The notes beneath the pieces are model-generated. The model was not told the origin of the DNA, did no database searches, and saw only the letters and a list, made by a program, of their open reading frames with translations. A DNA stretch of 24,000 bases from Methanobacteriota archaeon (GTDB lineage Archaea > Halobacteriota > Methanomicrobia > Methanomicrobiales > Methanoculleaceae). Below, piece by piece: positions 5,077-23,859 of this stretch. Location of the stretch: positions 165,344-189,343 of the forward strand of contig JAENYE010000002.1 in NCBI GenBank assembly GCA_016841955.1, written 5' to 3'. Within the stretch, counting starts at the first letter, position 1. Each line of letters opens with the position of its first letter. A program made the translations under genes and the position numbers.

Positions 5077-5100
5077 AGACACACGAATCATTTAGCCCAA

Positions 5101-5111
5101 TATATAAAATT
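5101..5111 (-). promoter_or_regulatory. Candidate TATA box for fasciclin paralog 3 (leaderless arrangement)
   Basis: TATATAAAATT at 5101-5111 lies 25 nt upstream of ATG 5076. The same 11-mer occurs at 4539-4549. Confidence 0.5.
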
Positions 5112-5269
5112 GCGGACATAATGGTGCGGGGCTCCCGGGGCGGCCGTCGAGGGAGATAGGCGCCGGATTTGCGTACCTTCTCCGGCCGGAAGGAAACGGG
5201 GGATTACCCCGCAACCGGCGGGAAAGAAAGGGATTTCTGGCCGGACCGCGAAGTTCTGCCCGCCCGGGC

Positions 5270-5713: not shown

Positions 5714-5753
5714 ACCAGGTACCTCTCTGTAGAGGCCCTTCGTGGTATGTTAT

Positions 5754-5764
5754 CGTATATATGG
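5754..5764 (-). promoter_or_regulatory. Candidate TATA box for fasciclin paralog 4
   Basis: The minus strand reads CCATATATACG about 42 nt upstream of ATG 5713, inside an AT-rich patch at 5750-5800. Confidence 0.4.
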
Positions 5765-5929
5765 ATTATTATATTCCAAGTCTTATGAAAATCTTGAGAA
5801 GTGATGCGTGCCCCCATCTTCGGGCCGGGCGGCGGGGTCCGCCCTCGCTCCCCGGGAAGAACGGGGCTCTCCGGTCTTTTCGGGACCGGCAACGGCGGGA
5901 GTAACAACAGCCGGGCCACGGGAAAACCG

Positions 5930-8913: not shown

Positions 8914-8935
8914 CACATAGATCTTGAACCGGGCC

Positions 8936-8966
8936 CTTAAAAATAATCGGTAATTATTTTAATATA
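8936..8966. promoter_or_regulatory. Divergent promoter region with two TATA boxes (Hjc-like operon to the left, cfb operon to the right)
   Basis: ATTTTAATATA at 8956-8966 is centred about 27 nt upstream of cfbA ATG 8989 (leaderless). On the minus strand GATTATTTTTAAGG (8936-8949) is about 29 nt upstream of ATG 8913. Confidence 0.45.
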
Positions 8967-8988
8967 GTCTCGTAGTACCTTGTAATAT

Positions 8989-9396
8989 ATGGGTAGAAAA
9001 GGAATGTTACTGGTCGGCCACGGGAGCAAGCTCCCGCACAATAAAGAACTGATCGAGACCACAGCAGAGATCATCGCCGGAAAGACCGATGATTACCTCG
9101 TCAAACCCGGCTTCATGAGCCTCAACACGCCGTCGGTGGAGGAACAACTCGAGGCGTTCCGGAAGGAGGACATCGAGATGCTGGTCGTCGTCCCGCTCTT
9201 CCTCGCGAAAGGCGTCCACATCAACCAGGACATCCCCGAACTCCTCGGCCTCCCGGCGGGGGAACGGTGCGGCACGTTCCAGCTGAACGGGAAGACGGTG
9301 CCGCTCGTCTACGCAAACCCCATCGGCAGCGACCCGCTCCTTGCCGAACTGATGCTGAAGAACGCGTCCGACGCGATCGCCGAACTGAAACCCTGA
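8989..9396 (+). CDS. cfbA: Small CbiX-type chelatase; by context the sirohydrochlorin nickelochelatase CfbA
   Basis: A 135-aa CbiX(S) with LLVGHGSKLPHN and VVPLFLAKGVHI, followed directly by cfbE, cfbD and cfbB homologs. Confidence 0.8.
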   Translation: MGRKGMLLVGHGSKLPHNKELIETTAEIIAGKTDDYLVKPGFMSLNTPSVEEQLEAFRKEDIEMLVVVPLFLAKGVHINQDIPELLGLPAGERCGTFQLNGKTVPLVYANPIGSDPLLAELMLKNASDAIAELKP

Positions 9397-9401
9397 AGGA
9401 T

Positions 9402-10559
9402 ATGCGAATCCTGGTGCTGGATACCATCCACGGCGGGGCGGAGCTCGCCGGGGCACTCCGTGGTGCCGGCCACCAGGTGGACGAGGTGGACGTCTACCGC
9501 GGGAAGGCCGGTATTCCCATCGAGGAGGCACTCGTCCGCACCTACGATCTCGTCACCGCACCGGTCCACCTCGACTCCGACCACCCTCTCCTCCGGCACC
9601 ACGGGCCCGCGGTTCCCCACCACGAGATGGTGAAGCGGGTCCTCGACGGCCGGCTGCCGCATCCTTTCATCGAGATCACCGGGGCACGGGGAAAGACCAC
9701 CACCGCCCACGCCCTCGCCTCGCTGCTGCCGGGCCCGGGCATCCTCCACACATCGACCGGGACCTACCGCTACCCGGAGCGGGAGCTGCTCTGGAAGAAG
9801 AGCATCACCCCCGCCTCCCTGATAGTGGCGGTGCGTGAGGCGGAGCGGATCGGGGGCTGGCTGGTCGCCGAGGAGTCGCTCGGGGTCACCGCCGCCGGGG
9901 ACGTGGCGGTGCTGACTTCAGCAGAGGATTACCCGATCGCTGCGGGGAAGAAGCACGCGATCGCGGAGAAGTGCCGGCTGCTCTCCGGGGCGCGGACGGT
10001 CGTGCTCCCGCCCGGCATCGATCTGCCGGGAACGACGGTCGCCGCCGACGGGATGGTATCCTTCGACGGCCCGGTCTGCCGGTACGCCGGGTGCGGGATC
10101 GCCGGCACCTTCGAAAACCCGCTCTGCACCCTTGCGGGCTACCGCACGGCGCTGACGCTCGCGGCCGCGACCGCCTGCGTGCTCGGGATCGATCCTTCCC
10201 CCCTCGGGCGGTTCGCCGCCCTGCCCGGCCGGATGGCGGCCCGGCGGGAGGGAGACCTCCTGATCCTCGATAACGCAAACAGCGGGACGAACATGGCCAC
10301 CACCATTGAAGCCGCCCGCTACGCGAGAGAACTCTCGGGCAACGGCCCGATGACTATGGTCATCGGCGAGGAAGCACGAGCGGTCTGCGAGGGGTTCTCG
10401 GCGGAGGACATCCGGCGGACGGTATCGGCCGTCGGCCCGACGGCGACCGTCTACGTCGGGGAAGGGCATCCCGCGGCGACGCTCGATGCGGGGCTGGATG
10501 CCGCCCGGAAGATCACCCCGGCGGGCACGATCGTCCTCGCAGTAAAGACGTGGAGATAG
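9402..10559 (+). CDS. cfbE: Mur-ligase-like coenzyme F430 synthetase CfbE
   Basis: Mur ligase P-loop ITGARGKTTTAH. The start is set at ATG 9402 (MRILVLDTIHGG), 5 nt after the cfbA stop. The listed start at 9267 would overlap cfbA with an R-rich leader. Confidence 0.8.
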   Translation: MRILVLDTIHGGAELAGALRGAGHQVDEVDVYRGKAGIPIEEALVRTYDLVTAPVHLDSDHPLLRHHGPAVPHHEMVKRVLDGRLPHPFIEITGARGKTTTAHALASLLPGPGILHTSTGTYRYPERELLWKKSITPASLIVAVREAERIGGWLVAEESLGVTAAGDVAVLTSAEDYPIAAGKKHAIAEKCRLLSGARTVVLPPGIDLPGTTVAADGMVSFDGPVCRYAGCGIAGTFENPLCTLAGYRTALTLAAATACVLGIDPSPLGRFAALPGRMAARREGDLLILDNANSGTNMATTIEAARYARELSGNGPMTMVIGEEARAVCEGFSAEDIRRTVSAVGPTATVYVGEGHPAATLDAGLDAARKITPAGTIVLAVKTWR

Positions 10560-10562
10560 ACT

Positions 10563-11627
10563 ATGCACTACATTCAACCGAGACCGAGTTCAATTGTCGC
10601 GGCGCTCTACACCGCCCGCGACCTGGGGGTGGACGTGGCGATCCTCCACGGCCCGTCAGGCTGTTCGTTCAAGCACGCACGTCTCCTCGAGGAGGACGGC
10701 ATGCGGGTGCTGACGACATCGCTCGCCGATAACGAGTTCATCTTCGGCGGGCACGAGCCCCTTATGCGGGTGCTCCGCTACGCGGAGGAGACGTTTGCGC
10801 CCCGCCGGATGGCGGTCGTCGGGACGTGTGTTTCGATGATCATCGGGGAAGACCTCCTGTCCGCGATCCGGGACGCAGAGGTTGAGACTCCGGCGATCGC
10901 CGTGGACATCCACGCCGGGTTCAGGGAGAACATCGACGGCGTGCTCGCGACACTCGAACCGGCGGCGGCCGCGGGCTGGATCAGCGGCGACGAACTGGAA
11001 CGCCAGCGCTACCTACTCGCCAAGGCAAACGAGGTGGAGCGGCTGCGGGGAGCGGCCTCCCGGAACTACATCGAGCCGACGCGCGGCGACCTCAAGCACG
11101 TCGCGGCAGAGCGCCTCATGGAACTCGCCGAAGACGGTGCCACCGGGGTCGCGGTCATGAACGCGAAGAAAGAGACCGCCTATATGTTCGCCGACGAACT
11201 CCTCGCCCTCCACGATGTCTGTCCTGAGGGCAGGGTCACCTACCTCGCGAACCTCGAAGACCGGGGGCTCCCGAAGGTGCGGGAGGACGCCGCCCGGATC
11301 CTCGCCGGCATGCAGGGGCGGGGGGTCGACCCCGGACTCCTCGGGGCGCTCGACGAGTACGGGGCAAACGGTCCCGCGATCGGGGAGCGGATACGGGAGC
11401 TCGAACCGGACTTCGCCCTCCTCGTCGGTGTTCCGCACGCCGTTCCGCCGGAGTACACGGAAGGTATCGAGGTCTTCTCGATCACGAACGGCCCCCGGCA
11501 GGTGGAGCCGCTCCGGGAGATGGGGCACCGCCACGTCATGGTCGAGATCGACCTGCACCCGAAGACCCTCGGCGTCCGGGATGTCGTCGAGAGCGAGTTC
11601 GGGGCGGTCCTGCGGAGCATGCGATGA
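10563..11627 (+). CDS. cfbD: Nitrogenase NifD/E-like subunit of Ni-sirohydrochlorin a,c-diamide reductive cyclase, CfbD
   Basis: ILHGPSGCSFKH and VVGTCVSMIIGEDL are nitrogenase component-1-type cluster-ligand contexts. 354 aa. ATGA overlap with cfbB at 11624-11627. Confidence 0.75.
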   Translation: MHYIQPRPSSIVAALYTARDLGVDVAILHGPSGCSFKHARLLEEDGMRVLTTSLADNEFIFGGHEPLMRVLRYAEETFAPRRMAVVGTCVSMIIGEDLLSAIRDAEVETPAIAVDIHAGFRENIDGVLATLEPAAAAGWISGDELERQRYLLAKANEVERLRGAASRNYIEPTRGDLKHVAAERLMELAEDGATGVAVMNAKKETAYMFADELLALHDVCPEGRVTYLANLEDRGLPKVREDAARILAGMQGRGVDPGLLGALDEYGANGPAIGERIRELEPDFALLVGVPHAVPPEYTEGIEVFSITNGPRQVEPLREMGHRHVMVEIDLHPKTLGVRDVVESEFGAVLRSMR

Positions 11628-12991
11628 AGTCCTTCCTCGTCGCCGGCGACCGCTCCGGGAGCGGGAAGACGAGCATCACCCTTGCGCTCTCGGCCCTCCT
11701 TTCGGCCGACCGGACCGTCCAGACCTTCAAGGTGGGGATGGACTACATCGACCCTTCCTACCTCGCGGGGGTGACGGGCCGGCCCTGCCGGAACCTGGAC
11801 GGCTACGTGATGAGCCCGGGCGAGGTCCGGGCGGTCTTTGCGCACGGGTGCCGGGGAGCGGATATCGCCGTCGTCGAGGGAGTACGGGGGCTCTTTGAGG
11901 GCGCGGAGGCGCTCACCGACCTCGGGAGCACGGCCGCGATAGCAAAGCAACTCGACCTGCCGGTTGTTCTGGTCATCAACGCCCGGAGCATCACCCGGAG
12001 CGCGGCGGCGATCGTGAAGGGCTTCCAGGCCTTCGATTCGGATGTCGATATCCGGGGAGTCATCTTAAACAACGTCACCGGGACCCGCCACCGGGAGAAG
12101 GCGGTTCGTGCGATCGAGCACTACTGCGGCATCCCGGTCGTCGGCACCATTCCCCGGACGGCGGAGATGGAACTCGCGATGCGCCACCTCGGCCTCGTCC
12201 CCTACCGGGAGGGGCAGGGGCACGGGGAGTTCCTGGAACGGATCGACGTGATCAAGCAGAAGATCGGCGAGCACGTCGACCTCGACGCCCTGCTCGCGCT
12301 CGCCGCGGATGTCGAGCCCCCGGCGGAGGAGAACTCCGTCTACGCGGCGGCCGATCCGGACGTCCGGATCGGCGTCGCGCTGGACGAGGCATTCAACTTC
12401 TACTACGCCGACCTCTTCGACGTGCTCTCGTCGTGCGGTGCGGAGGCGGTCCCGTTCTCCCCGATCCACGACCGGCTGCCGGAGGCCGACGGCTACATCC
12501 TCGGCGGCGGCTACCCGGAGCTCTTCGGCCGTGAACTGGAGGCGAACACCGCGATGCGGGAGGGGCTCCGCGAGGTCTCGCGGAACGGCACACCAGTCTA
12601 CGCGGAGTGCGGGGGGCTGATCTACCTCACCGACCGGATGGTGCTCGCCCCGGGATTCATGGACGCGGATAAGGAGAGGGTCTATGAACTCGCCGGGGTA
12701 TTTTCGGGCGAAACAAGGATGCCGGCCCGGCGGATGCTCGGCTACGTGGTGGGGACGAGCGCGGCGGGGAGCCCCATGGGCGAGGCGGCGTTCCGGGGCC
12801 ACGAGTTCCACTACAGCAGCGTCCGCCTTGCGCCGGAGACGCGCTACGCCTACCGGCTGACCCGGGGGAGCGGGATCCGCGGGGGGTGCGACGGTGCGGT
12901 CCGGGACCGGACCATCGCAAGTTATACGCACCTCCACCCGGTGGCGAGCCGGGGGATGCTCGCGCACTTCGTGGGCTGCTGCCGGACCTGA
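11624..12991 (+). CDS. cfbB: CbiA/CobB-family amidotransferase; by context Ni-sirohydrochlorin a,c-diamide synthase CfbB
   Basis: N-terminal P-loop GDRSGSGKTSITLAL, a C-terminal glutamine amidotransferase part (VYAECGGLIYL, HEFHYS), 455 aa. Confidence 0.8.
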   Translation: MKSFLVAGDRSGSGKTSITLALSALLSADRTVQTFKVGMDYIDPSYLAGVTGRPCRNLDGYVMSPGEVRAVFAHGCRGADIAVVEGVRGLFEGAEALTDLGSTAAIAKQLDLPVVLVINARSITRSAAAIVKGFQAFDSDVDIRGVILNNVTGTRHREKAVRAIEHYCGIPVVGTIPRTAEMELAMRHLGLVPYREGQGHGEFLERIDVIKQKIGEHVDLDALLALAADVEPPAEENSVYAAADPDVRIGVALDEAFNFYYADLFDVLSSCGAEAVPFSPIHDRLPEADGYILGGGYPELFGRELEANTAMREGLREVSRNGTPVYAECGGLIYLTDRMVLAPGFMDADKERVYELAGVFSGETRMPARRMLGYVVGTSAAGSPMGEAAFRGHEFHYSSVRLAPETRYAYRLTRGSGIRGGCDGAVRDRTIASYTHLHPVASRGMLAHFVGCCRT

Positions 12992-13144
12992 CGGGGTTCG
13001 CGGCAACGCTTTTCTCGTGGCGGTCGGGACACCGGGATCGTTCTCCGGGGCCGATGCCGGCCGTCGCATCGTTCCCGGTCGCCGCAGGGTGGTTCGGCGC
13101 ACGAAACGCAAAACATACAAACAAATCGAGACTACACTGACTGC

Positions 13145-14014
13145 ATGATAATTTACCTTGACGGCAGATTCGTCACGGAGGAGGAGGCGAAGGTCTCGGT
13201 CTTCGATCACGGTCTCCTCTACGGCGACGGTGTTTTCGAGGGGATACGGGCCTACAACGGCAGGGTCTTCCGTCTTGACGAGCATCTCGCACGGCTCTAC
13301 GACTCGGCAAAGACGATCGACCTTGCCGTCCCGATCACGCGGGAGGAGTTTGCCGAGGCGATCAAGGAGACCCTGCGGCGCAACAACTTGAAGGACGCCT
13401 ACATCCGCCCGATCGTGACGAGGGGCGTCGGCGACCTCGGCCTCGACCCCCGGAAGTGCGCGAAACCGACCGTCATCGTCATCGCCGTCACCTGGGGCGC
13501 CATGTACGGCGACCTCTACGAGAAGGGCCTCCGGGCGGTCTGCGTCTCGGTCAGGCGCACCCCCCCTGAAGCGATGCCGCCGAACGTGAAAAGCCTCAAC
13601 TACTTAAACAACATCCTCGCGAAGATCGAGGCGAACTACCGCGGCGTGGACGAGGCGATCTTCTTCGACATCCACGGCAACATCTCCGAAGGGTCGGGGG
13701 ACAACATCTTCGTCGTCAAGAACGGCGCCATCATCACCCCGCCGACCCTCAACAACCTGCGCGGCATCACCCGGCAGGTCGTGCTGGAGATCGCGGCGTC
13801 GATGGGCATCACCCTCCTCGAGCGGAACCTCGGCTACTACGACCTCTACGCGGCCGACGAGGTCTTCGTCACGGGGACCGCGGCGGAGGTCGGTCCGATC
13901 CGCGAGATCGACGGGCGGGTCATCGGGAACGGCAAGCCCGGCCCCATCACCCGGCAGCTGATGGCGGCCTTCAAGACCGTCACCCAGAGAGAGGGAAGCC
14001 CGATCTACGAGTGA
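13145..14014 (+). CDS. ilvE: Branched-chain amino acid aminotransferase (class IV PLP enzyme)
   Basis: [18 protein letters not shown], the AYIRP.VTRG context, [12 protein letters not shown] and [10 protein letters not shown] are typical IlvE motifs. 289 aa. Confidence 0.9.
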
Positions 14015-14162
14015 GAAGTCCGGGTTTTCTCCGGCAGACATCCTTTTTCCTGATCCTTTACCGGCCATTCGCAGATGTATAAGTAGTACGCAGGGCAAGA
14101 CTGGATTGATCGCTTTCGCCCGTGCGAGGCCGGAGCCGGGCCCAACCGATGAAGGACATCCT

Positions 14163-15359
14163 ATGACGACCACCAGGGCAGTGAAGATCCCCCGGGCGAC
14201 ATGCAAGCTCTTCGGCGCGATAAAGGCGCTCGCGACCATCAAGCAGTGCGTCGTGCTCGTCCACGGGCCGAAGGGCTGCGTCTACCATATCAACTACATC
14301 CTCGGGATGCGGGGCGACCGCCCGTCCGAGATCTACTCGACGTGCCTTGACGAGCACGACGTCATATTCGGCGCCGAGGAGAAACTCAGAGAGGCCATCG
14401 AGGAACTCGATGCGCAGCTGCGTCCCGACCTCATCGCGGTCCTCTCCTGTTGCGTCTCAAGCATCATCGGCGAGGACATCGCCGCCGCGGTGAAGGCCGC
14501 CGAAACCGATGCACAGGTCGTCGGGATTGAAGCCGGGGGGTTCGAGGGCGATTTCCGGACGGGCTACAGCGAGACCCTTCGTCGGCTCGTCGAAGAGTTC
14601 GTCCGGGGACCCTGCGTTGTCGAGGAGCGGTCCGTCAACCTGATAGGCCTTCTCCGAGGCGGGCCGGACCTGCGGGAGCTCGTGCGCATCCTCGATCTCG
14701 TCGGCGTCCGGGTCAACGCGGCGCTTACCGCCGACGCAACGGTCGAAGACATCGAGCGCCTGGGTTCTGCGGCGCTCAACATCGTCGTCTGCGAACCGGC
14801 GGGGAAGGAGGCCGCAGAGATGCTCGAGCGGATCTGCGGCACCCCGTTCATCGTCGCCGACATCCCCATCGGGCACGCCGCCACCGTCCGGTTTCTCGAC
14901 TGCGTCGCCGAATCCCTCGGGCTTCCAGACTACGCAGGGCAGGGCCCCGACTCCGACGACGCCTGCCGCGAGGTCCTCGCGGGCCGGCGGGTGGCGATCG
15001 TCAGCGGGCCGACGCGGGCAATCTCCATGACTCTCTTCCTCGCGGGTCTCGATCTGGCGCCGTCTCTCATCGTCGTGGACTTCGACTCGGATACCCTAAA
15101 AAGGCTGAGAGATCTGGCCGGCCCGGAGTGCGAGATCCTGATCGAGCCGGAGCAGGAGGAGATCAGGGAGAGGCTCAAGACATGCCGGATCGACCTGGTC
15201 TTCGGCGGCATGCTCGAGAAGCCCCTCGCTGCATCGCTCGGGATCGAGCACCTGGACATGATGCACGGCAGCCAGAGGACGCTCGGGTTTGCCGGCGCAG
15301 AGCACCTCATCGCGGCGCTCGCGAAGCAAAAACCCCGCCGCCCCGGCGGATGCGGATAG
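14163..15359 (+). CDS. Second nitrogenase component-1 (NifD/NifE)-like metalloprotein paralog; possibly methanogenesis marker 13 family
   Basis: LVHGPKGCVYH and AVLSCCVSSIIGEDI parallel the cfbD motifs HGPSGC and TCVSMIIGEDL. The start is set at ATG 14163 (MTTTRAV). There is no NifH-type P-loop, so it is not CfbC. Confidence 0.65.
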   Translation: MTTTRAVKIPRATCKLFGAIKALATIKQCVVLVHGPKGCVYHINYILGMRGDRPSEIYSTCLDEHDVIFGAEEKLREAIEELDAQLRPDLIAVLSCCVSSIIGEDIAAAVKAAETDAQVVGIEAGGFEGDFRTGYSETLRRLVEEFVRGPCVVEERSVNLIGLLRGGPDLRELVRILDLVGVRVNAALTADATVEDIERLGSAALNIVVCEPAGKEAAEMLERICGTPFIVADIPIGHAATVRFLDCVAESLGLPDYAGQGPDSDDACREVLAGRRVAIVSGPTRAISMTLFLAGLDLAPSLIVVDFDSDTLKRLRDLAGPECEILIEPEQEEIRERLKTCRIDLVFGGMLEKPLAASLGIEHLDMMHGSQRTLGFAGAEHLIAALAKQKPRRPGGCG

Positions 15360-15435
15360 ACGGGACGCCGGCATGCCCCGGAGAAGGGGAAAGCCGGGCC
15401 ATTGACCGAATCCGCCCGGTTCCCTCCGGCACAAC

Positions 15436-15444
15436 TTTTTTATC
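15436..15444 (+). promoter_or_regulatory. Candidate TATA box for the tRNA gene
   Basis: TTTTTTATC lies about 35-40 nt upstream of tRNA position 1. Confidence 0.3.
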
Positions 15445-15478
15445 TCCAGGCATCGAAGTTGTATGGCACATTGCATGG

Positions 15479-15551
15479 GCTGCTATAGTGTAGGGGCCAA
15501 TCATGTCGGCCTTTCACGCCGACGACTGGGGTTCGAATCCCCATAGCAGCA
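15479..15551 (+). tRNA. tRNA-Glu (anticodon UUC)
   Basis: Hand-folded. Acceptor stem GCTGCTA/TAGCAGC plus discriminator A. Anticodon stem TCGGC/GCCGA with loop CTTTCAC (TTC). T arm TGGGG-TTCGAAT-CCCCA. The D region GTGTAGGGGCCAATCAT resembles archaeal tRNA-Glu. No encoded CCA. An oligo-T tract (TCTTTGTTTTT) follows. Confidence 0.9.
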
Positions 15552-15775
15552 TCTTTGTTTTTGAAAATTGTTCTAATCTAAGTACAGGAAGTGCTTTATC
15601 TTAAAGTGATATTAGGTGTGTGGCCTTCTGAAGTTATTTTGTTTCTAGAAGCCACATAAAGATGACAGAGAAAGGCACGAAGGCTAGGTTTTATGAATCA
15701 GGTGTGTGACACTGGGCTAACAAAAAGGAATTATCTATGCGTACAGTTGAATATGGTGAATTATGACCCATCGGA

Positions 15776-16207
15776 CTATCTGGGTCTTAATAACAGGGCC
15801 TTTTCCCGGAAAACCGTCCAAAAATATATTAATTTCCGATTCACCAACCATGCATAACCCGCTGATATTAGTGCTCCGACTATAATCGCTAGCACAGATA
15901 GTGCTAGTATTACCAAATAAACATTCGTTAAATCTGTAAACATCCTGATCCCTATTGGGAGTGCTACAAAACAAAAGCCCATTATCGTACTTGTGTCTTT
16001 TTTTTCTTTTTGGTAATGTTCAATCCGATTATCGCATATATCAAGAAAGTTATTCAATTCCTCGCTTGTAACATGCTGTTTAAAGAACTTTTTAATGGTC
16101 TCTTGCTCTACCTGAGAAAAGTTAGGATTGTAAGTATACCGTACGATCGATTTTTGAGGGAGTATGGCGCTTTCACAGATTCTTATGAGTTCCAAAGCCT
16201 TGATCAT
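15776..16207 (-). CDS. Hypothetical small membrane protein (two predicted C-terminal TM helices)
   Basis: A 143-codon ORF in AT-rich DNA. Hydrophobic stretches IMGFCFVALPIGI and VYLVILALSVLAIIVGALISAGYAWLV. The T-rich element TTTTTGTTATGG lies about 27 nt upstream of the ATG on the minus strand. Confidence 0.5.
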   Translation of the reverse strand: MIKALELIRICESAILPQKSIVRYTYNPNFSQVEQETIKKFFKQHVTSEELNNFLDICDNRIEHYQKEKKDTSTIMGFCFVALPIGIRMFTDLTNVYLVILALSVLAIIVGALISAGYAWLVNRKLIYFWTVFREKALLLRPR

Positions 16208-16303
16208 ATAACAGTATTTTCTGTGACCATAACAAAAACTAGATCCTTCTTGGGTAATGTCTCAATCTTCTGTAATTTGCCTGAGCCCTGTCCCCTTGCC
16301 TGA

Positions 16304-16969
16304 TCATTCCTTCTCCATCGTCAAATATCTTCTGCCGGTGATCTACTCCACGTTGCTATCCATCAGGATAGATTCAATCAGCCTGAGCAGTGCCTCTCCA
16401 TTCGGGAATACCCCAACCACCTTGGTTCTCCGTTCAGTTCCTTATTGACTCATTACATCATGTTCATGGTTCAGATCCGTTTCCAATGTTGTTCCGGGAA
16501 TGCGGTGTAACTCATGAGCTCTGGAAGGGACCCTTCAACAGTGTTAGCTGCTTTCCGGTAACACTGTGTATGCAGGTCATTCGAGAAACAGAGACAGGAG
16601 ATAGCTGATCGACGCCCAGTGGGCAACGATCTCCTAGACCCTTCTCGTCGCGATTCCTAGTGGAGGACGCAACAATCATATTCACTAGAGCCTTCCCCAT
16701 CCGGGCATAGCGTCCAAAGACTGTATCTCGAACGGGAGCTCCAGGAACTGCGGTTTTTTGAGGATGATCTCACTGTACCGGGTTTTGAGGGATCGATTCT
16801 TGTACCTGTTCCGATATGCTTTCCGCGTATTGGTTCTCTCGTACGGGGTGGCTCCTGCCTGCTCGAGTGCCTCTTGCAACATCACCTGGTTTCTCAACCA
16901 GATGGTGAGCGTCTTCATGCCGTTTTCATGAACGGAAAAATAGTCTTCGATAAACGCTAGGGGATCCAC
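16304..16969 (-). pseudogene. IS256-family (Mutator-like) transposase pseudogene, with the DDE core internally deleted plus frameshifts and stops
   Basis: The N-terminal part reads ATPYERTNTRKAYRNRYKNRSLKTRYSEIILKKPQF.ELPF. After a frameshift it reads GKALVNMIV.SSTR...VSVSR. A C-terminal part is recovered by hand translation: FPEQHWKRI*T, then ERRTKVVGVFPNGEALLRLIESILMDSNVE*ITGRRYLTMEKE, where TAG replaces the conserved TGG. Only about 665 nt remain of the roughly 1.2 kb expected. Confidence 0.75.
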
Positions 16970-17030
16970 GGCTCTGCATCTCCTTTCTGCAGATCCAGGT
17001 TAGATTAAGATCCTATTCGACATTTACAGA

Positions 17031-17792
17031 ATGTTCGCTACGTTACCCTTAAAATCACGAATGGAAAACTATTTTAAGAGCCTGTTTTTAGTTATTGATT
17101 GTGATCATCGTATGAATGAAGAGATCGATGTCAAAGAACACGCTAAAAATTTAGTCTGTGCCATCCAAGCGTTAACCCCATCGAGGAACCTACTCATTCA
17201 GTTTCTTGCCATGTCATCACTGGACTTTCCAACAATGTACGATACATTTCCAGAGATCCTAAAAGATAAAGAGTGGCGTAAAGCATTGGAAATGGCCTTT
17301 GGCGTATCCTTCGGGGAAAAAGTTGACTTAAACCATGGGAATAACCTGGGCCGTCCTATCGTCGAATTATACGAGAAGGTTTTCAACACGCTCACCGACG
17401 AGAAAGTGCGCGAAGGACTGGCTCTTTTGAGTGGTATCCCTCAGGAAAAAATCCCAAATCCACGTAAGGAATGGATTCATTTACGGTTAGAGGGGCTAGC
17501 ATTGGAACCAAGTGTTGGTGAGGAATCACTTTTAGTACTAAAGACGATAAAGAGAGTTGCTGAAGAAAGGGACTCAGCATATCCACAATATAAATTAAGT
17601 CTGTCAGATGTTGAAGCGTTGACTAATATTGACGAGAGACGCATCCTATCGATTGTAGACCTCTTACTCAAGTATAAATTGGTTGGAAAATCCTCAATTC
17701 GCGAAGATGATGAGGAGGGTCGTTCCATCTGGAAAGATGCGATTGAGTTCGGGACAGATCTTCGAGATGAGGTCGATCTGCTTACAGGATAA
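17031..17792 (+). CDS. Hypothetical protein with a wHTH-like C-terminus (island module 1, gene 1)
   Basis: A 253-codon ORF in roughly 40% GC DNA, which is unlikely by chance. The C-terminal LSLSDVEALTNIDERRILSIVDLLLKYKLVGK resembles a winged-helix recognition unit. An alternative start at ATG 17112 (MNEEIDV) has TATA-like TTTTTAGTTATT/ATTTTAAGAG upstream. Confidence 0.6.
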   Translation: MFATLPLKSRMENYFKSLFLVIDCDHRMNEEIDVKEHAKNLVCAIQALTPSRNLLIQFLAMSSLDFPTMYDTFPEILKDKEWRKALEMAFGVSFGEKVDLNHGNNLGRPIVELYEKVFNTLTDEKVREGLALLSGIPQEKIPNPRKEWIHLRLEGLALEPSVGEESLLVLKTIKRVAEERDSAYPQYKLSLSDVEALTNIDERRILSIVDLLLKYKLVGKSSIREDDEEGRSIWKDAIEFGTDLRDEVDLLTG

Positions 17793-17812
17793 ACCCTAAT
17801 GGCATTACACAG

Positions 17813-19561
17813 GTGTTTCGTGTGCATAAGACGAACCGACTGCATAACCAGGAAGACTACAATAGGCAAGTTCGGGCTAGACGTCAAAATCTAAAACAAG
17901 AACAATCAGAAGGCACCGAGATTCAACGAGAATCCGGCGACTCCCCGCCCGGAGCAGGCTATGAAAAAGAAATAAGTGTTACAGCAGCCCTGTTTGCACG
18001 GCAGTTTCAGAAAATCAAAAGAAGTTCACGAATTCCCCCCGTCAGCCTCAAAGTAAGTGCAAACAGCCCCAAAATCATCATTCATGATGCAGGAGTACAG
18101 GTAGCTAGTAAAAGAATTCCTCCACCGAAGGTTCGAGGATGTGTTGCACCAAAATTGATACTTCCTATAAAGGGTTTTCAGACGCTTGAGGTAGCGCCCA
18201 TTCTGAAACCGATCTCATCGCCATCCAGTATGGTTCCGCCAACGCTCTCGACAGAGCCACTCATGACGGTACAACAGCACCTATCCAACCCCTGCCAGAT
18301 GAGATCCTTACTGACCATAAGACCTACTGAGCGCCACTTGCCGGTACTGAAATGCAGGAAAATTATCACTCAGTGTATGTCACCTTTGGGAGGTTCGAAA
18401 CCGTCAACGCCCCAACCTGAGGAGAGTTCTGATCTACCCCCATTAGATGATGATATATTTGACATATTCTTCCAACAAGAGGGGCCGGGAAGGATCGACG
18501 ATGGTAAGCCAGCTGTAATCTGTGTTGTTGAACCATCAGAGGATAGGGTTTTTGGCTTGATTGAAACGTTTTGCCAGCGGATCTACAGAGAAAAACGCGG
18601 GGGGAACCCCGAACCACTCAAAATAACAAGTCTTTCCGAGCTTAAACCAGAGATACCGTTCCTTCAGGCTTCGAATAAAATCGTGTCCATTCAGTTGACG
18701 AAAGAAGATTGGGTAAAACTGAGTGGAGAGAAGGAGGATTGGGCGAATTTCCAAAACAGGATTGATCAGCTGTATTCCCAAAATTTAGGTTTCATCATTA
18801 TCAACTATCCCCGTCCATTCCGTAGAGCTCCTAGCGCCCATAATGTCCGAGTTATCAATATTTCCCCAAAAATTTTAGATACTAAATGTAAACGAAATTT
18901 TGCGGAACTGGCATGGGGTTTTGTCTGCATCGATGACACGTTAGAGAGATGGGAAGAGATCTTTGAATGCGGGAGGATGCACTATGAAAAAGCACTCGAG
19001 CGCATTCGACGTGAAAACGGCAATAAATGGGAATTGGCAACAAATCACAATGAAAACGGTGAATCCGAGGAACATTTCTCGATCAAGTGCTTCATCGTTA
19101 AAACGCTCACTGAAAAGTATGTGCGGGAGGGTACGCTGGAAACGAATAGCGAACCTTCGGAGATAAAAGAGAAGGTACTCACAGAAGTTAAGGAAGCAAC
19201 ATGCGGGATTGTACCTGACATTACTTATCATGAAAACGAATTTTATGAGATCGAGACCTTGTTTTCTAGCGAAAGGCAGAGTAAGAGCGTAATAAAGAAA
19301 ATTGCTGAAAAGATTGAAGCCTATGAGGGCGTTAGGAAAAAAGTAGTAGTCCATATTGTACTCGAAAATATCACCCTATTAAGGCATCTTAGCGAGATCA
19401 GAGATGTTTTAAAGAATTACCAAAAGTGGCAAAAGACCCACAATATTGACATCCACATCTCGACACTTAATGTCAGGGAGGGAAAACTCGTTTCCCTTCA
19501 GGAGTTTCAGAGATCCCTTCGAAATTTGATGGGAGAATGCAGTAAGGTATCAAATGTGTAG
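17813..19561 (+). CDS. Hypothetical 582-aa protein: P/S/K-rich N-terminal region, unknown middle domain, C-terminal CoiA-like PD-(D/E)XK nuclease signature (island module 1, gene 2)
   Basis: A long ORF that begins 20 nt after the previous stop. The start is GTG 17813, or GTG 17822 which lies 6 nt after AGGTG; the first in-frame ATG is at codon 140. The C-terminus reads EEHFSIKCFIVKTL...LTEVKE...GIVPDITYHENEFYEIETL, giving the pattern H..hK / E / PD / ExE. Confidence 0.65.
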   Translation: MFRVHKTNRLHNQEDYNRQVRARRQNLKQEQSEGTEIQRESGDSPPGAGYEKEISVTAALFARQFQKIKRSSRIPPVSLKVSANSPKIIIHDAGVQVASKRIPPPKVRGCVAPKLILPIKGFQTLEVAPILKPISSPSSMVPPTLSTEPLMTVQQHLSNPCQMRSLLTIRPTERHLPVLKCRKIITQCMSPLGGSKPSTPQPEESSDLPPLDDDIFDIFFQQEGPGRIDDGKPAVICVVEPSEDRVFGLIETFCQRIYREKRGGNPEPLKITSLSELKPEIPFLQASNKIVSIQLTKEDWVKLSGEKEDWANFQNRIDQLYSQNLGFIIINYPRPFRRAPSAHNVRVINISPKILDTKCKRNFAELAWGFVCIDDTLERWEEIFECGRMHYEKALERIRRENGNKWELATNHNENGESEEHFSIKCFIVKTLTEKYVREGTLETNSEPSEIKEKVLTEVKEATCGIVPDITYHENEFYEIETLFSSERQSKSVIKKIAEKIEAYEGVRKKVVVHIVLENITLLRHLSEIRDVLKNYQKWQKTHNIDIHISTLNVREGKLVSLQEFQRSLRNLMGECSKVSNV

Positions 19562-19567
19562 TCTTGA

Positions 19568-19657
19568 TACTCCCTCTTTTACAACAATGAGTGAAATTTT
19601 TCGGAGATGAGGGTTTCAACAGGGCCTAATCCACCAAAATTACATTAAGAGGGAGTA
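19568..19657. terminator. Inverted repeat between the convergent island modules (possible bidirectional terminator or structured element)
   Basis: TACTCCCTCTT (19568-19578) is the exact reverse complement of AAGAGGGAGTA (19647-19657). A second small palindrome GTAAAATCTTTTAC at 19655-19668 overlaps the stop of the minus-strand gene. Confidence 0.3.
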
Positions 19658-19664
19658 AAATCTT

Positions 19665-20597
19665 TTACTTACCCAGTATTTTCCCAACTTCATTTATGAA
19701 GTCATTTTTATTGTAGATTACTTTTCCCTCTGCTGCGCATTTATCCAGATTTAGATCAGCCCTTGAGATTATTTTCATAGTTTTTGGCCAAGTCATATTC
19801 CATGGTACAGAATCGTGAAAATTACTGCCCCGATAGCAGTCTGAAAAGGAAAAGTCATCTTTTACGTCAATAAATTTCTTAAAACTCTTTGAAAAAAAGA
19901 GCTCTTGAAGATTGCTTAAGGACTCTACAACATCTTTTTCTTTTCCTCGTGATCTCATTGCTTGTATTCTCTGATACGTCAATTTCTTGATATTATGGGG
20001 ATTAGTTTCTTTGAGCAAACGAACACCTATCTCTAACTCTTTACGGAAAGATGGAGGAATAACGGTGTTAATATCGTTACTTATGCCAACATCTATGCTA
20101 AAGTCGATATCCTCCAATTCAAGTTTACCATATTTTGTCTTTAGAACGCTGGGATGTTTCAACTCTGCATGAATCCAATATTCATTTTGACTTTCCGTTG
20201 GAACTTCTTTTGCTCGATGCTTTTCTATCAGAGCGTCAAGATAGTTAGGATTCTTTATATCATACTCAAGATCCAACACAAACGTATCAATATCAGACAT
20301 ACATCTTGTATTCAATTCAAACCCATTTGGGGTAACTGTTATCGCTGAGGAAAGATCCTCAAGACTTCTTAGTGGTCTTAGTTTTATCCGTTTTGGAACA
20401 CCATATGGAAATGGAATTTTTTTAGGTACAATACCCCCTTTCGCTTCGAATGCTATGGAATACTTCTGAAGATTCTCTGGACAATATACTACCATCTCCG
20501 GAGGGTATACGGTATATGAGCCTCTTATTGTTTCGTATATCTTTGACGCATTTTTAATAATCTCCTCAGTAACTTTCTGAGCTATTTCATTTACCAT
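19665..20597 (-). CDS. Hypothetical 310-aa protein (island module 2, gene 2)
   Basis: A long ORF in ~35% GC DNA. The start is set at ATG 20597 (MVNEIAQK), which is preceded on the minus strand by GAGGGGGG (20602-20609) with 4-nt spacing. I recognise no domain. Confidence 0.65.
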   Translation of the reverse strand: MVNEIAQKVTEEIIKNASKIYETIRGSYTVYPPEMVVYCPENLQKYSIAFEAKGGIVPKKIPFPYGVPKRIKLRPLRSLEDLSSAITVTPNGFELNTRCMSDIDTFVLDLEYDIKNPNYLDALIEKHRAKEVPTESQNEYWIHAELKHPSVLKTKYGKLELEDIDFSIDVGISNDINTVIPPSFRKELEIGVRLLKETNPHNIKKLTYQRIQAMRSRGKEKDVVESLSNLQELFFSKSFKKFIDVKDDFSFSDCYRGSNFHDSVPWNMTWPKTMKIISRADLNLDKCAAEGKVIYNKNDFINEVGKILGK

Positions 20598-20611
20598 TTT
20601 GCCCCCCTCAA

Positions 20612-21628
20612 TTAACCCCAATTAAAAAGGCAATGGATCGGAATTTTTACAGGAACTGTGCACTCACTAATTTCGACCTCAATAGGTGGTATTTCAATTT
20701 CTGGGTACTCGTTAAAGGCTAAATCGGTTCTTTGAAGGCTTAGATGTATTATTGTTGGGGTTTGTTGAACTTTTAGTACTTCAATCGAGTTATGAATAAC
20801 TATCTTATTTTTCCCTATTGAATCCAAATAATTTAAGAAACTTTCAATCTTTGTAAGTAATTTCAGGTTTTTAAAATAGGAATAGGTAAATGCTAAAGAA
20901 AACTTTTCGTGAAAATCTCCATTTTCTTCAAACTTATTTGAGAGGTTTGAAAATGTTGCATTCATTTTCACTCTCCCTTCTTCATCTAAAGACACTGGAT
21001 TCTTTAGCAAATCAAGCACATCATCAACTACTGCGTTATACTCAACAAATTCTTTCTTTACTTCTTCCATTTCATTTTCAAGATCAACAATAACTTTCTT
21101 TTTAAATTCGCCCATTCCATCAGGAGTTGATAAAATCGCGTCTTCTGAGGGTTGAAGTTTTACTTCAATCAATGCAGTACCCCCTCCACAATTTTTAACA
21201 TTAATTTTCTCACTTAAATGGAACTTCCCTTGTTCACTATCATATCGAATTTTGATTCGTTCAGGGGCACTGATTAGCTCAATATCAGGCCTAAATAAAT
21301 CGATGCTTTTAGGAATTCGTTCTACTTCACCAGTGGCAGTATCTTTTACCTCAAATAAAACAAATTCAATTGCCCTAGGGGTTTCCGATAATTTTGAAGA
21401 AAATACAAAACCTGCATAACCATTGATTTCAAATTGAGATAGCTTAAAGGAGGATTCTTCTATCAGTTCTATACTGCCTTCCGGTACATTGTAAACGTCT
21501 TTCAACTCCAAGTTTTTTGAGAGTGTAAAAGTGATCTCAACTAGATCTGCCTTATTCCATAAAATATGAGCGGGAAAATCATCGTTTTGAATAGATGTAG
21601 TCGGCATATACAGTGATTTTATCTGCAT
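20612..21628 (-). CDS. Hypothetical 338-aa protein, beta-rich N-terminal half and helical middle (island module 2, gene 1)
   Basis: The listed ORF starts at a TTG (21709). ATG 21628 (MQIKSLYMPTT) lies about 27 nt downstream of the minus-strand CATATATACTATT (about 21650-21662), a leaderless archaeal arrangement. The stop at 20612 is 14 nt upstream of the next gene's ATG. Confidence 0.65.
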   Translation of the reverse strand: MQIKSLYMPTTSIQNDDFPAHILWNKADLVEITFTLSKNLELKDVYNVPEGSIELIEESSFKLSQFEINGYAGFVFSSKLSETPRAIEFVLFEVKDTATGEVERIPKSIDLFRPDIELISAPERIKIRYDSEQGKFHLSEKINVKNCGGGTALIEVKLQPSEDAILSTPDGMGEFKKKVIVDLENEMEEVKKEFVEYNAVVDDVLDLLKNPVSLDEEGRVKMNATFSNLSNKFEENGDFHEKFSLAFTYSYFKNLKLLTKIESFLNYLDSIGKNKIVIHNSIEVLKVQQTPTIIHLSLQRTDLAFNEYPEIEIPPIEVEISECTVPVKIPIHCLFNWG

Positions 21629-22128
21629 AATTACCAAAACATTAACATAATAGTATATATGACTTTTCATTAAAACCGATAAACATAAGTTATTTCCATC
21701 AAAAAACAATTAATTACAGCCCGTTATATGGATAAATAAGGAGCCTTCGTTTTTTGAAAGTGTATAATCGTCGCTTAAGCATACAATTGAACGTAGGAGT
21801 GTGGCCCATGCCTTCTGCTCCAGCAATGCCAGAAGGTGGCGAACCGGCCAACCTGATACAACCGTCTCAATGAAACAGGACGATCCCTCGCCCGGTCGGA
21901 AGAGACAGTCATCCAACAAAATCACCCTCTTCCACCAGACAGGCGGCATCCCTCAACCCGCACGCATCCAGAACCATGAACGCACCTGCCCTGAGCACGA
22001 TTCTCACCAGCAAGAAGATGAGGAACTCAATCAGCCTGTCAGGCAGTGTAGAAAGATAGCGACCAAAAACCTTCAGACCAATCCTATTTCGGAAGATACA
22101 TCAGCACTAAAACGGAGCGTGTATTTGT

Positions 22129-22476
22129 ATGTCTTTAACAGAAATAGGCAGCTGTGGGGCGTATTGCGGGACATGCCGGGCATTGAAGGAACAGGCATGC
22201 AAAGGGTGCAAGATCGGCTACGATACCGGCGAGCGGGATATCGATAGGGCCAGATGCAGGATAAAGGTGTGCTGCGTGAAGAAAGGCTATACATCCTGTG
22301 CGGATTGTCCCGAGCTCCATGGATGCCGGACACTGAATGAATTCTATGCTAAAAACGGGTACAAATACAAAAAGTATAAGCAGGCAATCGAGTTCATCGG
22401 ACAAAACGGGTATTCTGCATTTCTCAAGATAGCCGATACCTGGACGAATGCCTACGGAAAATATGAAAATAGGTGA
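22129..22476 (+). CDS. Cys-rich DUF3795-family protein
   Basis: The CGAYCGTCRAL..ACKGC...C.I..CC..KG...CADCPE...C pattern fits DUF3795 as I recall it. 115 aa. GC is intermediate (~48% by eye), below the host genes. Confidence 0.6.
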   Translation: MSLTEIGSCGAYCGTCRALKEQACKGCKIGYDTGERDIDRARCRIKVCCVKKGYTSCADCPELHGCRTLNEFYAKNGYKYKKYKQAIEFIGQNGYSAFLKIADTWTNAYGKYENR

Positions 22477-22503
22477 CCGGGAGGAGTCCTCCGGATAGTA
22501 CCC

Positions 22504-23187
22504 TCACCACACCCCGGGCACCAGCCGGTAGCGCGTCTTCTGCCGGTACTCCGCATACCCCGGGAGTTCCCTCACCAGAACCTCTTCTTCGTTCCGGATC
22601 CGGAGAATGATGAGTACGGGCACGGGGAGGAATACGAAGAGCGCCCAGAAAGACCCGAGGGCGAGCGGTGTTGCAAGAAACATCAGGATCGTTCCCAGGT
22701 ACATGGGATGGCGGACGACGGCGTAGGGGCCGGTCTCGATCACCTTCTGCCCCGCCTCGACCTCCACCACCCGGGCCGCATAACTGTTCTCCCGGATTGT
22801 CAGGAAGAATATGAGATAGCCGAGGAGAACCACTCCGTCGGCCGCGAGGACTACGGCAACCGGCAGATCCGACCACCCGAACCGGTAATCGAGGCCCGGG
22901 ATGACAAAGCCGACGAGGAGGATGATCGTAGAGAGCGTTATGATCGTCCGCTGCTCGCTCTCCTGCTCCCGCGTCTTCATGCGCCGTTCGAGGAGCTCCG
23001 GGTCGTGCCTCACGAGATACAGGACTGCAGAGGCTATGGGGATGAAGAGAACGCCCAGATAAAGCCACCCCTCCCAGTAATGGATCGAACCGGCGGGGAC
23101 GAAGAGGAGCAGGGCTACGACGATGAGCCCCGCGATGAACCTGGCCAGAACTGCTCCCGCCAACCGGGCAGCGCTCCCCTCCGTCAT
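22504..23187 (-). CDS. Isoprenylcysteine carboxyl methyltransferase (ICMT)/phospholipid methyltransferase-family membrane protein
   Basis: Multiple TM segments and the C-terminal signature GPYAVVRHPMYLG...RNEEEVL..ELPGY.EY...TRYRLVPGVW. Confidence 0.75.
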   Translation of the reverse strand: MTEGSAARLAGAVLARFIAGLIVVALLLFVPAGSIHYWEGWLYLGVLFIPIASAVLYLVRHDPELLERRMKTREQESEQRTIITLSTIILLVGFVIPGLDYRFGWSDLPVAVVLAADGVVLLGYLIFFLTIRENSYAARVVEVEAGQKVIETGPYAVVRHPMYLGTILMFLATPLALGSFWALFVFLPVPVLIILRIRNEEEVLVRELPGYAEYRQKTRYRLVPGVW

Positions 23188-23194
23188 AGATACA

Positions 23195-23788
23195 TTACCC
23201 TGCTCTGTTCCTTCTGGGTGTCCTGCTTCGGATCTCTCTCGTTGCTTCCCGAGGTCTGCATGCCTTTGAAGTATTTCTCGATGTTGTCATCTTCGGCTGC
23301 CCTACGCGTTTCCACCAGATTCCCGGTTCTGCAACACTTCCCGAAGTTGTTATCTCCGGTTGCCCTACACCTCTCCCCCCGATCTCCGTATTCCTTCCCG
23401 TCTCTGTGTCGACAGCCGATCCCGCCTCTACCCCGGCACGCGACACCGGAGGTGCCCGACCCTCAGGAATGGCAACATCATTCAGCACCCGAAACAGCCG
23501 CAGCCCCAGATCGGTCGGCTCGTAAAACACCTTCCGTTTATCGGCAAAATCCTCGAATTTCGCAATCTTTCTTGCTACAAGCCCGCCGTCGACAAGACCT
23601 TTCAGGATCGGTCCGATAGTGTTCGGGTTCGCCTTGAATTCGTCTTTAATCTCGCTGAAGTACTTTCTGCCCTCAAGCGTCAAGGCTATGTACACAGCCC
23701 ACCGGAGATCGCTATTCAGTTCCCTCACGGCAGCCCGGGCCTCGTAGGGAACTTCGTTCAGGAATTTTTCAACGACCGTCTGCTCCAT
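23195..23788 (-). CDS. Winged-helix (ArsR/PadR-like) transcriptional regulator with a repetitive low-complexity C-terminal tail
   Basis: The N-terminal ~110 aa read LRWAVYIALTLEGRKYFSEIKDEF..NPNTIGPILKGLVDGGLVARK. The tail contains an imperfect 21-aa duplication. The stop is 7 nt from the ICMT start, so the two are probably co-transcribed. Confidence 0.65.
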   Translation of the reverse strand: MEQTVVEKFLNEVPYEARAAVRELNSDLRWAVYIALTLEGRKYFSEIKDEFKANPNTIGPILKGLVDGGLVARKIAKFEDFADKRKVFYEPTDLGLRLFRVLNDVAIPEGRAPPVSRAGVEAGSAVDTETGRNTEIGGRGVGQPEITTSGSVAEPGIWWKRVGQPKMTTSRNTSKACRPREATREIRSRTPRRNRAG

Positions 23789-23821
23789 ACCTCACCCCAA
23801 CACGGACATTAGTTACATATG

Positions 23822-23859
23822 GCTAACTGATATTAACGATATCGCCAATATCGGTTAGC
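23822..23859. promoter_or_regulatory. 13-bp imperfect inverted repeat in the AT-rich region upstream of the wHTH gene (candidate operator)
   Basis: GCTAACTGATATT (23822-23834) matches the reverse complement of AATATCGGTTAGC (23847-23859) at 12 of 13 positions. The centre contains the palindrome CGATATCG. It lies 34-71 nt upstream of ATG 23788. Confidence 0.35.

Follow-up and report, generated by a model that had tools for sequence, protein, structure and literature searches.

Bacterial hot spots for defence systems are often found at tRNA loci, in some cases with no detectable mobile element (PMC10121019). Here we describe a probable locus of this kind in an archaeon, a Methanoculleus methanogen that is represented by a metagenome-assembled genome (MAG; GenBank assembly GCA_016841955.1). 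We analyzed 24,000 nucleotides (nt) of contig JAENYE010000002.1 (positions 165,344 to 189,343 of the forward strand), which we call the window. Just after the terminator tail of its tRNA-Glu(UUC) gene, the window contains an island of about 6.3 kb of low-GC DNA, with two gene pairs that we call cassette A (o253 and o582; 17112-19561) and cassette B (o365 and o318; 19665-21628). We think it likely that the DNA from 15569 to about 21800 was acquired horizontally and fills a variable slot, and that it is a mosaic of separately acquired modules. The slot is probably a tRNA-adjacent variable hot spot with defence as its purpose.

The locus resembles the defence hot spots of E. coli (PMC10121019) and the core hot spots of Pseudomonas aeruginosa (PMC10250203) in its fixed flanks, varying content, and tRNA-side location. 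The slot also receives the same types of cargo (restriction-modification systems, nucleases, ATPases, and toxin-antitoxin-like pairs), and some of its occupants lack mobility genes. Unlike those hot spots, it lies in an archaeal methanogen, and the occupants in this genome match no known or candidate defence model. The other close parallel is the Islander type of tRNA-integrated island. These islands of archaea and bacteria (PMC4383910) share with our locus the foreign DNA on the 3' side of a tRNA, the differing composition, and the absence from relatives. Our locus differs from them because it has no integrase and no displaced tRNA fragment at its far end, because its homology with relatives runs into the T-rich tail after the tRNA, and because its content is a mosaic.

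The foreign character of the island is clear from its composition. The GC content is 0.647 across positions 1-15478 of the window and 0.404 across 15552-21870, and the drop from 0.65 to 0.40 takes about 15 nt at the 3' end of the tRNA (15551): in consecutive 30-nt segments, GC is 0.60 (15521-15550) and then 0.20 (15551-15580). Up to about 21800, GC is 0.31-0.52, and it then jumps to 0.64. GC at third codon positions (GC3) is 0.27-0.45 in the island's genes versus 0.85-0.91 in four host genes, and the tetranucleotide usage of island segments correlates with that of the host at 0.22-0.46, whereas host segments correlate with one another at 0.85-0.87. An earlier reading of this DNA, made from its letters alone and called the sequence-only reading below, had reported that base composition switches within a few nucleotides of the end of the tRNA. 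Our GC segments agree, and its hand counts for two lines of sequence (42/60 and 21/60 GC) are exact. It had also proposed a profile of GC and tetranucleotide usage; with GC3 added, this profile sets the island clearly apart from its flanks. The island is not uniform, however. GC is 0.34-0.36 in cassette B, 0.37 in o143 (a gene for a small protein), 0.42-0.48 in cassette A, and 0.52 in a fragment of an insertion sequence (IS), which amounts to at least three compositional classes (three or four by GC). The island is therefore a compositional mosaic, which argues against a single acquisition.

The second line of evidence is the comparison with relatives. Using a nitrogenase-like gene at 14106-15359 as the handle, we retrieved 79 loci from one-genome-per-species collections, and we compared the window closely with the ten closest comparators, which include the isolates M. 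nereidis and M. horonobensis. (Compared loci are labeled L001, L087, and so on, and coordinates given after a label are internal to that locus.) In all ten, the same left flank precedes the tRNA. Upstream of tRNA-Glu, the window has a cluster for coenzyme F430 biosynthesis (CbiX/CfbA, CfbE, two nitrogenase-like genes, CfbB, and an aminotransferase), and a multiple alignment shows that the tRNA itself is nearly invariant in 10 Methanoculleus or Methanomicrobiales relatives. By blastn and by multiple alignment, every comparator aligns with the window as far as positions 15552-15569 and then diverges, and the island block is missing from all ten. The insertion would be in doubt if relatives had the same block in conserved synteny, but we did not see this: synteny is broken at the tRNA in every Methanoculleus relative that we examined. 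Homology returns on the other side in M. horonobensis (L094). This genome matches positions 5945-14018 of the window at 87.7% identity, matches the tRNA region as well, and matches again at 21871-22528 (87.6% identity; L094 9743-10399), which comprises a conserved segment that we call X' and a DUF3795 gene. As compared to M. horonobensis, the variable interval is 15562-21870, and the counterpart in that genome is just 1.5 kb, with a GC of 0.39-0.43.

What lies in the slot differs in every relative. In M. horonobensis, the slot encodes a 360-amino-acid protein that matches the PADLOC candidate PDC-S11 along its whole length (E = 3e-140) and has a weak match to NucS_C. In M. nereidis (L003), it encodes an LmuB-like SMC-type ATPase (E = 2e-24), a type II restriction endonuclease (E = 2e-55), and a D12 adenine methyltransferase (E = 8e-97). 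L002 has a HepT ribonuclease with its MNT partner, and the MNT protein matches PDC-S09 (E = 8e-33). The slot of L001 contains a gene for a NYN-LOTUS nuclease, the slot of L006 contains a gene for an ATPase with AAA_14 and DUF4143, and in L073, which is a more distant relative, a gene for TnpB (IS605 OrfB/Cas12f-like; 11505-12314) comes after tRNA-Glu. In two relatives, L005 and L007, the tRNA is followed directly by housekeeping genes whose GC is normal. (In L007, which is also a more distant relative, a tRNA-Leu(UAG) at 11773-11859 lies behind tRNA-Glu.) Altogether there are eight different states of occupancy, including two without an island, and four relatives have known or candidate antiviral genes in the slot, where the PDC entries of PADLOC are to be read as candidates and not as validated systems. 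In none of the ten relatives did the examined stretch behind tRNA-Glu yield an integrase call. The locus thus shows the features of a hot spot: conserved flanks (the F430 cluster and the tRNA on the left, X' and DUF3795 on the right) and differing content in every relative, most of it genes of the defence type. The sequence-only reading had proposed a defence or accessory island. This is reasonable, and the PDC-S11 protein, the restriction-modification genes with the LmuB-like ATPase, the HepT-MNT pair, and the NYN nuclease in the same slot of relatives give it comparative support.

These comparisons also refine the borders. The sequence-only reading had the island inserted exactly at the 3' end of the tRNA, with coordinates of 15552-22480. 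The insertion is indeed at the tRNA, but homology with relatives extends about 5-18 nt beyond the discriminator base; because the T-rich tail is shared, the break falls just after the tRNA and not inside it. The left coordinate is approximately right. The right edge is at about 21763-21870, so the span originally given takes in about 600-700 nt of conserved flank. We also looked for an empty site in which the tRNA is joined directly to the methyltransferase and winged-helix (wHTH) genes that lie beyond the island. There is no such site in the comparators, but two come close: a C-terminal fragment of the wHTH gene begins 16 nt after the tRNA in L002, and the orthologous wHTH gene stands behind a 1.3-kb insert in L001.

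The island is not self-mobile today. We compared Pfam to the open reading frames (ORFs) and to every stop-to-stop fragment of 45 amino acids or more (53 in total) in the six frames of 15540-22140. These scans found no integrase or fragment of one, and Transposase_mut was the only family returned. The integrase of L087 (a locus that is described below) and its neighbours had no tblastn match in the window. To find attachment (att) sites, we searched for exact 10-mers, made gapped local alignments of the tRNA to both strands of 15601-24000 with a shuffled null, and ran a general repeat search, all within the window. The best local scores for a repeat of the tRNA's 3' end (attR) were 9-11, versus 10.5 ± 1.0 for shuffled queries; no 10-mer downstream on the + strand was common with the tRNA; and there were no bounding repeats. 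The sequence-only reading had likewise seen no integrase and no direct repeat of the 3' half of the tRNA, and it had correctly picked out a gutted IS256 transposase as the only recognizable mobile gene. This remnant of the IS256 (Mutator) family matches both ends of PF00872, namely positions 21-82 (16688-16999, E = 2e-7), 301-332 (16474-16656, E = 0.019), and 346-373 (16346-16441, E = 8e-5) of 379. However, a complete DDE transposase is lacking: about 220 central positions, including the catalytic DDE core, are gone, so the element is dead. Overall, composition, synteny, and these scans support the view that foreign DNA lies on the 3' side of the tRNA without working mobility genes.

The sequence-only reading explained these observations by one old, immobilized element. 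In this scenario, an integrative element (a plasmid or a provirus) used its tyrosine integrase to enter the 3' end of tRNA-Glu and later lost both the integrase and attR, and the island is a single fossil whose cargo is under selection. The position at the tRNA's 3' end and the foreign composition are as expected, and the IS remnant could have caused deletions. In L087, the immediate neighbors of cassette B, within a low-GC island, are a gene for a Phage_integrase and one for a primase-polymerase-like protein. But the window has nothing in common with the L087 element except for cassette B, and cassettes A and B are separate elsewhere. Also, the island comprises at least three compositional classes, no frame contains an integrase fragment, no att repeat rises above chance, and the slots of the ten relatives gave no integrase call. 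We consider a single element to be unlikely. Given the mosaic composition, the separate cassettes, and the lack of integrases in the relatives' slots, we favor repeated, piecemeal turnover over the decay of one element.

Both cassettes recur as gene pairs in other genomes. A homolog of o253 lies directly upstream of a homolog of o582 in L081, L082/83, L090/91, and L098. The identities of the two proteins to o253 and o582 are 48% and 41% in L081, 30% and 32% in L082/83, and 50% and 38% in L090/91. The surroundings vary by locus and include PolD, PAC2, TldD, and LonB next to a HEPN-MNT pair in L090, as well as SepF and RsmB in L098. In three loci, the GC of cassette A is 4-10 points below that of its flanks, which suggests that the pair is an inserted module in its own right.

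The first gene of cassette A encodes a helical protein, and homologs that are 45-50% identical begin at the same residue. The sole hint about its fold is a non-significant match to the winged helix of E2F8 (E = 0.66) in a profile search of the PDB; judging from this match, the C-terminus of o253 is possibly a winged helix. We considered whether o253 might be akin to the neighboring wHTH protein, but hhalign shows no relationship.

The second gene, o582, belongs to a large, unannotated family: among 1.84 billion representative proteins, its profile matched at least 449 representative clusters with E ≤ 1e-3, and 179 clusters with E ≤ 1e-30. The public annotation of the MAG has only the last 334 amino acids of the protein. 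However, its homologs are 572-609 amino acids long, with 95-98% coverage and 32-41% identity, and the closest of them starts with MFCVDE (MFRVHK here). These full-length homologs establish the 582-amino-acid reading from the GTG at 17813 as the real product. Five residues (H421, K425, E458, D469, and E479) are invariant in 68 aligned members, and S418, E481, T482, L483, F484, Y504, R259, E260, G264, and P266 are nearly invariant. We predicted structures for o582 only, both as the whole protein and as its C-terminal domain (AlphaFold2, with the family alignment). The model has an N-terminal helix (residues 7-33), a disordered proline-rich stretch of about 165 amino acids (37-203), where the predicted local distance difference test (pLDDT) is below 50, and a globular body with pLDDT above 90 over most of 221-580, which comprises an alpha/beta domain and the C-terminal domain. 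The C-terminal domain alone is modeled with a pLDDT of 92.5 and has an alpha-beta-beta-beta-alpha-beta order.

PD-(D/E)xK nucleases have a His-containing variant in the cap-snatching endonucleases of bunyaviruses and influenza. In the predicted C-terminal domain of o582, the invariant His and Lys lie on the first helix, and the invariant Glu, a Pro-Asp, and a Glu-x-Glu follow on three strands; the predicted order of elements would fit the core of the superfamily. From this layout we infer a His-containing, restriction-endonuclease-like metal site. The top matches of the domain in a Foldseek search of the PDB are endonucleases from La Crosse virus and Ebinur Lake virus, with I-Bth0305I, XPF, and McrBC lower in the list. 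The likeness has limits: no sequence or structure match is significant (E of at least 0.11, TM score of about 0.2, root mean square deviation of about 12 Å), and the motif is E-x-E instead of (D/E)-x-K. Searches of Pfam and of PDB sequence profiles with o582 or its C-terminal domain gave nothing meaningful, and o582 has no match in BFVD, a library of viral folds. We also compared the C-terminal domain to the PDC-S11 protein of M. horonobensis; hhalign shows no relationship.

Some distant homologs of o582 have other partners. In L084, L085, and L086, homologs with 26-32% identity are preceded by a 387-amino-acid protein and not by an o253-like partner, and in L084 and L085, another protein of 373-374 amino acids also precedes the o582 homolog. 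The 387-amino-acid partner has no similarity to o253 that hhalign could detect. Another distant arrangement is on a plasmid of Halorussus pelagicus (NZ_CP035121; L093 335-9161), which has three large co-oriented hypothetical genes that encode 629, 792, and 1403 amino acids. The C-terminal part of the 1403-amino-acid protein is a distant homolog of o582 (20% identity, E = 1e-5), and the second gene, upstream of the gene for this protein, encodes a PLD/NgoFVII-type nuclease domain. Cassette A may thus have a larger relative in this three-gene set.

In cassette B, the two genes overlap by about 10 nt. The same overlap, with o318 directly downstream, is found in L087, L088/89, and L092; homologs of o365 are 40-41% identical and homologs of o318 are 56-59% identical. 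In L087, an archaeal contig with a GC of 0.59 contains a low-GC island (L087 1-12100, at least 12 kb, GC of 0.33-0.45). Cassette B lies at the right end of this island and directly adjoins the Phage_integrase gene and a 760-amino-acid primase-polymerase-like gene. This context shows that integrative elements can carry cassette B. We found no part of the L087 element other than cassette B in the window. The 760-amino-acid protein contains a helical-bundle domain of the NrS1-1-type primase-polymerase, the integrase is a tyrosine integrase, and the L087 island also holds several unannotated genes and 66-nt direct repeats at 1299 and 3000. For o318 and o365 themselves, we found no remote homology, and PDB profile searches gave nothing meaningful. 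A metagenome scan with cassette B returned one short locus.

The remaining intact gene, o143, encodes a protein with a hydrophobic C-terminal half and one or two predicted membrane helices (Kyte-Doolittle peak of 2.98 over residues 89-123). It is a singleton (a cluster of 1 member), and no relative of it was found on viral contigs. All of the four long ORFs and the ORF for this membrane protein are intact, just as had been described. The description of these genes as orphans is fair only in a narrow way, as none of the five proteins matches a model in Pfam, NCBIfam, PHROGs, or PADLOC. Taken strictly, it is wrong: the four long ORFs do have metagenome homologs, as conserved gene pairs.

We also searched collections of viruses, phages, and plasmids. 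Seven scans of 2.9 million viral contigs, with single proteins and with alignments, found no relatives. Using tblastn, o582, o318, and o365 had no match in 50,697 phage records; in 72,556 plasmids, o318 and o365 had no match and o582 had only the distant Halorussus fusion. Homologs of the cassettes come from archaeal genomes that are unrelated and have a GC of 30-45%. Outside the window, the two cassettes are found apart and in unrelated contexts.

A plausible history of the slot would be as follows. Cargo would enter on integrase-bearing elements that target the tRNA; alternatively, it might enter by DNA uptake followed by homologous recombination through the conserved flanks. Older cargo would then be replaced, or worn away through deletions and the action of ISs, which would leave no integrase and no att repeat. 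Cassettes A and B would be retained as defence or exclusion modules. In cassette A, o582 might cut nucleic acid at a metal site formed by H421, K425, E458, D469, E479, and E481, and o253 might be a DNA-binding sensor or regulator for o582.

The island could also be acquired DNA whose cargo has nothing to do with defence. The cassettes could be selfish addiction modules (toxin-antitoxin-like), genes left over from the maintenance or replication of mobile elements, or other niche-specific accessory functions. The layout of cassette A, with a small helical and possibly winged-helix protein plus a nuclease-like protein, is that of many toxin-antitoxin pairs, and in several genomes cassette A stands among housekeeping genes. 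Cassette B travels with an element that encodes an integrase and a primase-polymerase, and none of the 5027 PADLOC models matches the cargo. On the other hand, recognized or candidate defence genes occupy the same slot in four relatives. A core function for a virus or plasmid is at odds with the collections of viral contigs, phages, and plasmids, where the only trace of the cassettes is one distant plasmid fusion. We therefore consider it quite unlikely that the cargo is unrelated to defence.

Several observations do count against a defence hot spot. First, the five intact proteins of the island match no model in Pfam, NCBIfam, PHROGs, or PADLOC (no match at E ≤ 1 in the PADLOC search), and the defence role rests only on location and neighbors. 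Second, no significant match backs a nuclease assignment for o582. The best PDB matches of its C-terminal domain, to bunyavirus cap-snatching endonucleases, have E values of 0.11-0.4 and TM scores of about 0.2, which are not significant; the model of the whole protein gives only weak Foldseek matches to AAA+ proteins (TM score of 0.16); and at the lysine position of (D/E)xK the sequence reads E-x-E, with the invariant Lys on the helix instead. Third, L001 and M. horonobensis are the only comparators with a conserved right flank inside 10 kb, and tRNA-Glu may also mark a general breakpoint for rearrangements. Fourth, the comparison covers just ten relatives. Finally, the route of entry into the slot is wholly inferred.

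Two other explanations have little in their favor. An assembly artefact, in which the metagenome assembler joined another organism's DNA to the Methanoculleus contig at the conserved tRNA, is highly improbable. The source is a MAG, and a tRNA that is near-identical across the genus could seed a false join. But Methanoculleus-like DNA resumes in the same contig (at 87.6% identity to M. horonobensis from 21871 and at 92.6% identity to the L001 methyltransferase gene), so two independent false joins would be needed. Also, 18,225 nt of the window are present without a mismatch in a second record (contig JAENZM010000019.1 of GCA_016841295.1), the window's proteins are also present on a 497-kb contig, and the isolates M. 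nereidis and M. horonobensis carry low-GC inserts of this kind behind the tRNA. Lastly, we dismiss the idea of a native, ancestral Methanoculleus region of odd composition: it has the intact reading frames in its favor and nothing more, and it is already refuted by the synteny comparison (the block is missing from ten relatives). A GC3 that is 0.4-0.6 below that of host genes and the homologs of the cassettes in unrelated archaeal genomes of 30-45% GC also count against it.

Islands next to tRNAs are commonplace, and this one would be no surprise by itself; the interest comes from what the comparison reveals. The comparison defines a slot with conserved flanks in a genus of methanogens that is relevant to biogas, and the defence-type genes in the slot differ by species. 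It also brings out two conserved, unannotated gene pairs, one of which has a confident predicted fold and an obvious candidate active site. We suggest, tentatively, that cassettes A and B might be two previously undescribed archaeal systems for defence against viruses or plasmids. If so, the slot behind tRNA-Glu in Methanoculleus would be a practical place to look for more defence systems of methanogens. Defence in these archaea is, to our knowledge, little explored. The locus supplies concrete candidates, and the content of the slot between tRNA-Glu and DUF3795 across Methanoculleus offers a route to more. The features of the locus are listed in Table 1.

Table 1. Features of the tRNA-Glu slot and its flanks, in window coordinates
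Feature	Position	Strand	Remarks
tRNA-Glu(UUC)	15479-15551	+	ARAGORN; Rfam RF00005, 62.4 bits; left anchor of the variable slot
T-rich tail after the tRNA	15552-15568	+	Common to relatives, consensus TnCTGTTTT; synteny stops in or just after the tail
o143	15776-16207	-	Intact ORF, small protein; GC 0.37
IS256/Mutator-family transposase remnant	16346-16999	-	Pieces of Pfam PF00872 in different frames; GC 0.52
o253 (cassette A, gene 1)	17112-17792	+	226 amino acids from the start supported by homologs
o582 (cassette A, gene 2)	17813-19561	+	582 amino acids, GTG start
o318 (cassette B, gene 2)	19665-20621	-	310-318 amino acids; GC 0.36, GC3 0.31
o365 (cassette B, gene 1)	20612-21628	-	338 amino acids; start fixed at MQIKSLYMP by alignment of homologs; GC 0.34, GC3 0.27
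Right junction and conserved segment X'	21763-22128		GC jump at about 21800; M. horonobensis match from 21871
DUF3795 gene	22129-22476	+	Pfam PF12675, E = 9.5e-6; conserved right flank, not cargo
ICMT/PEMT-family methyltransferase	22504-23187	-	Pfam PEMT/ICMT; host-side
Winged-helix-like regulator	23195-23788	-	Ortholog at L001 5514-6158, which follows L001's own tRNA-proximal insert

On the right side, positions 21763-21880 are 80% identical to L001 6505-6623, and positions 21767-22050 have a paralog (80-82% identity) just past the end of the window, at about 24138-24762 as read from L080, or 2.3-2.7 kb downstream. The downstream paralog flanks a 110-amino-acid gene, and the copy at the junction is without the middle 330 nt. 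In M. horonobensis, the ortholog of the junction copy stands before DUF3795. The DUF3795 protein belongs to a cluster (at 90% identity) of 15 members from Methanoculleus species, and the position of its gene with respect to the slot is the same in M. horonobensis.

The right flank has itself been rearranged. The methyltransferase gene is 92.6% identical, at the nucleotide level, to a truncated copy in L001, which is the closest relative. L001 5433-7662 contains two decayed copies of the methyltransferase-wHTH unit: in one, the methyltransferase is reduced to its first 21 codons, and in the other, there is a 181-nt deletion inside the methyltransferase and the wHTH gene is reduced to its C-terminus. 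L001 also has about 5.3 kb of additional DNA before synteny with the downstream part of the window returns. This region of L001 looks like a second variable spot.

The tRNA-Glu of L001 (4049-4121) is unlike all of the others. A pair in the T-stem is swapped in a compensatory way, from T...A to A...T, and both changes are in the 3' half. This could be ordinary covariation, or it could be a trace of a 3' half that was replaced by a copy from an element. In the window, Rfam and tandem-repeat scans identified tRNA-Glu only. A scan for promoters and terminators used bacterial models and was uninformative for an archaeal host.

On the left side, the nitrogenase-like gene that we used as the handle (NifE/N-like, Oxidored_nitro) is directly upstream of the tRNA. 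It also adjoins tRNA-Glu in the other Methanoculleus relatives that we examined, but it is missing in M. horonobensis, which has 24 nt in place of 14019-15427 of the window (1409 nt). There is thus an indel on the upstream side of the tRNA as well. Further upstream, the GC of the host DNA dips to 0.53-0.57 at 8251-9250, around the divergent junction of a 165-amino-acid gene and cbiX/cfbA; this is probably an intergenic promoter region.

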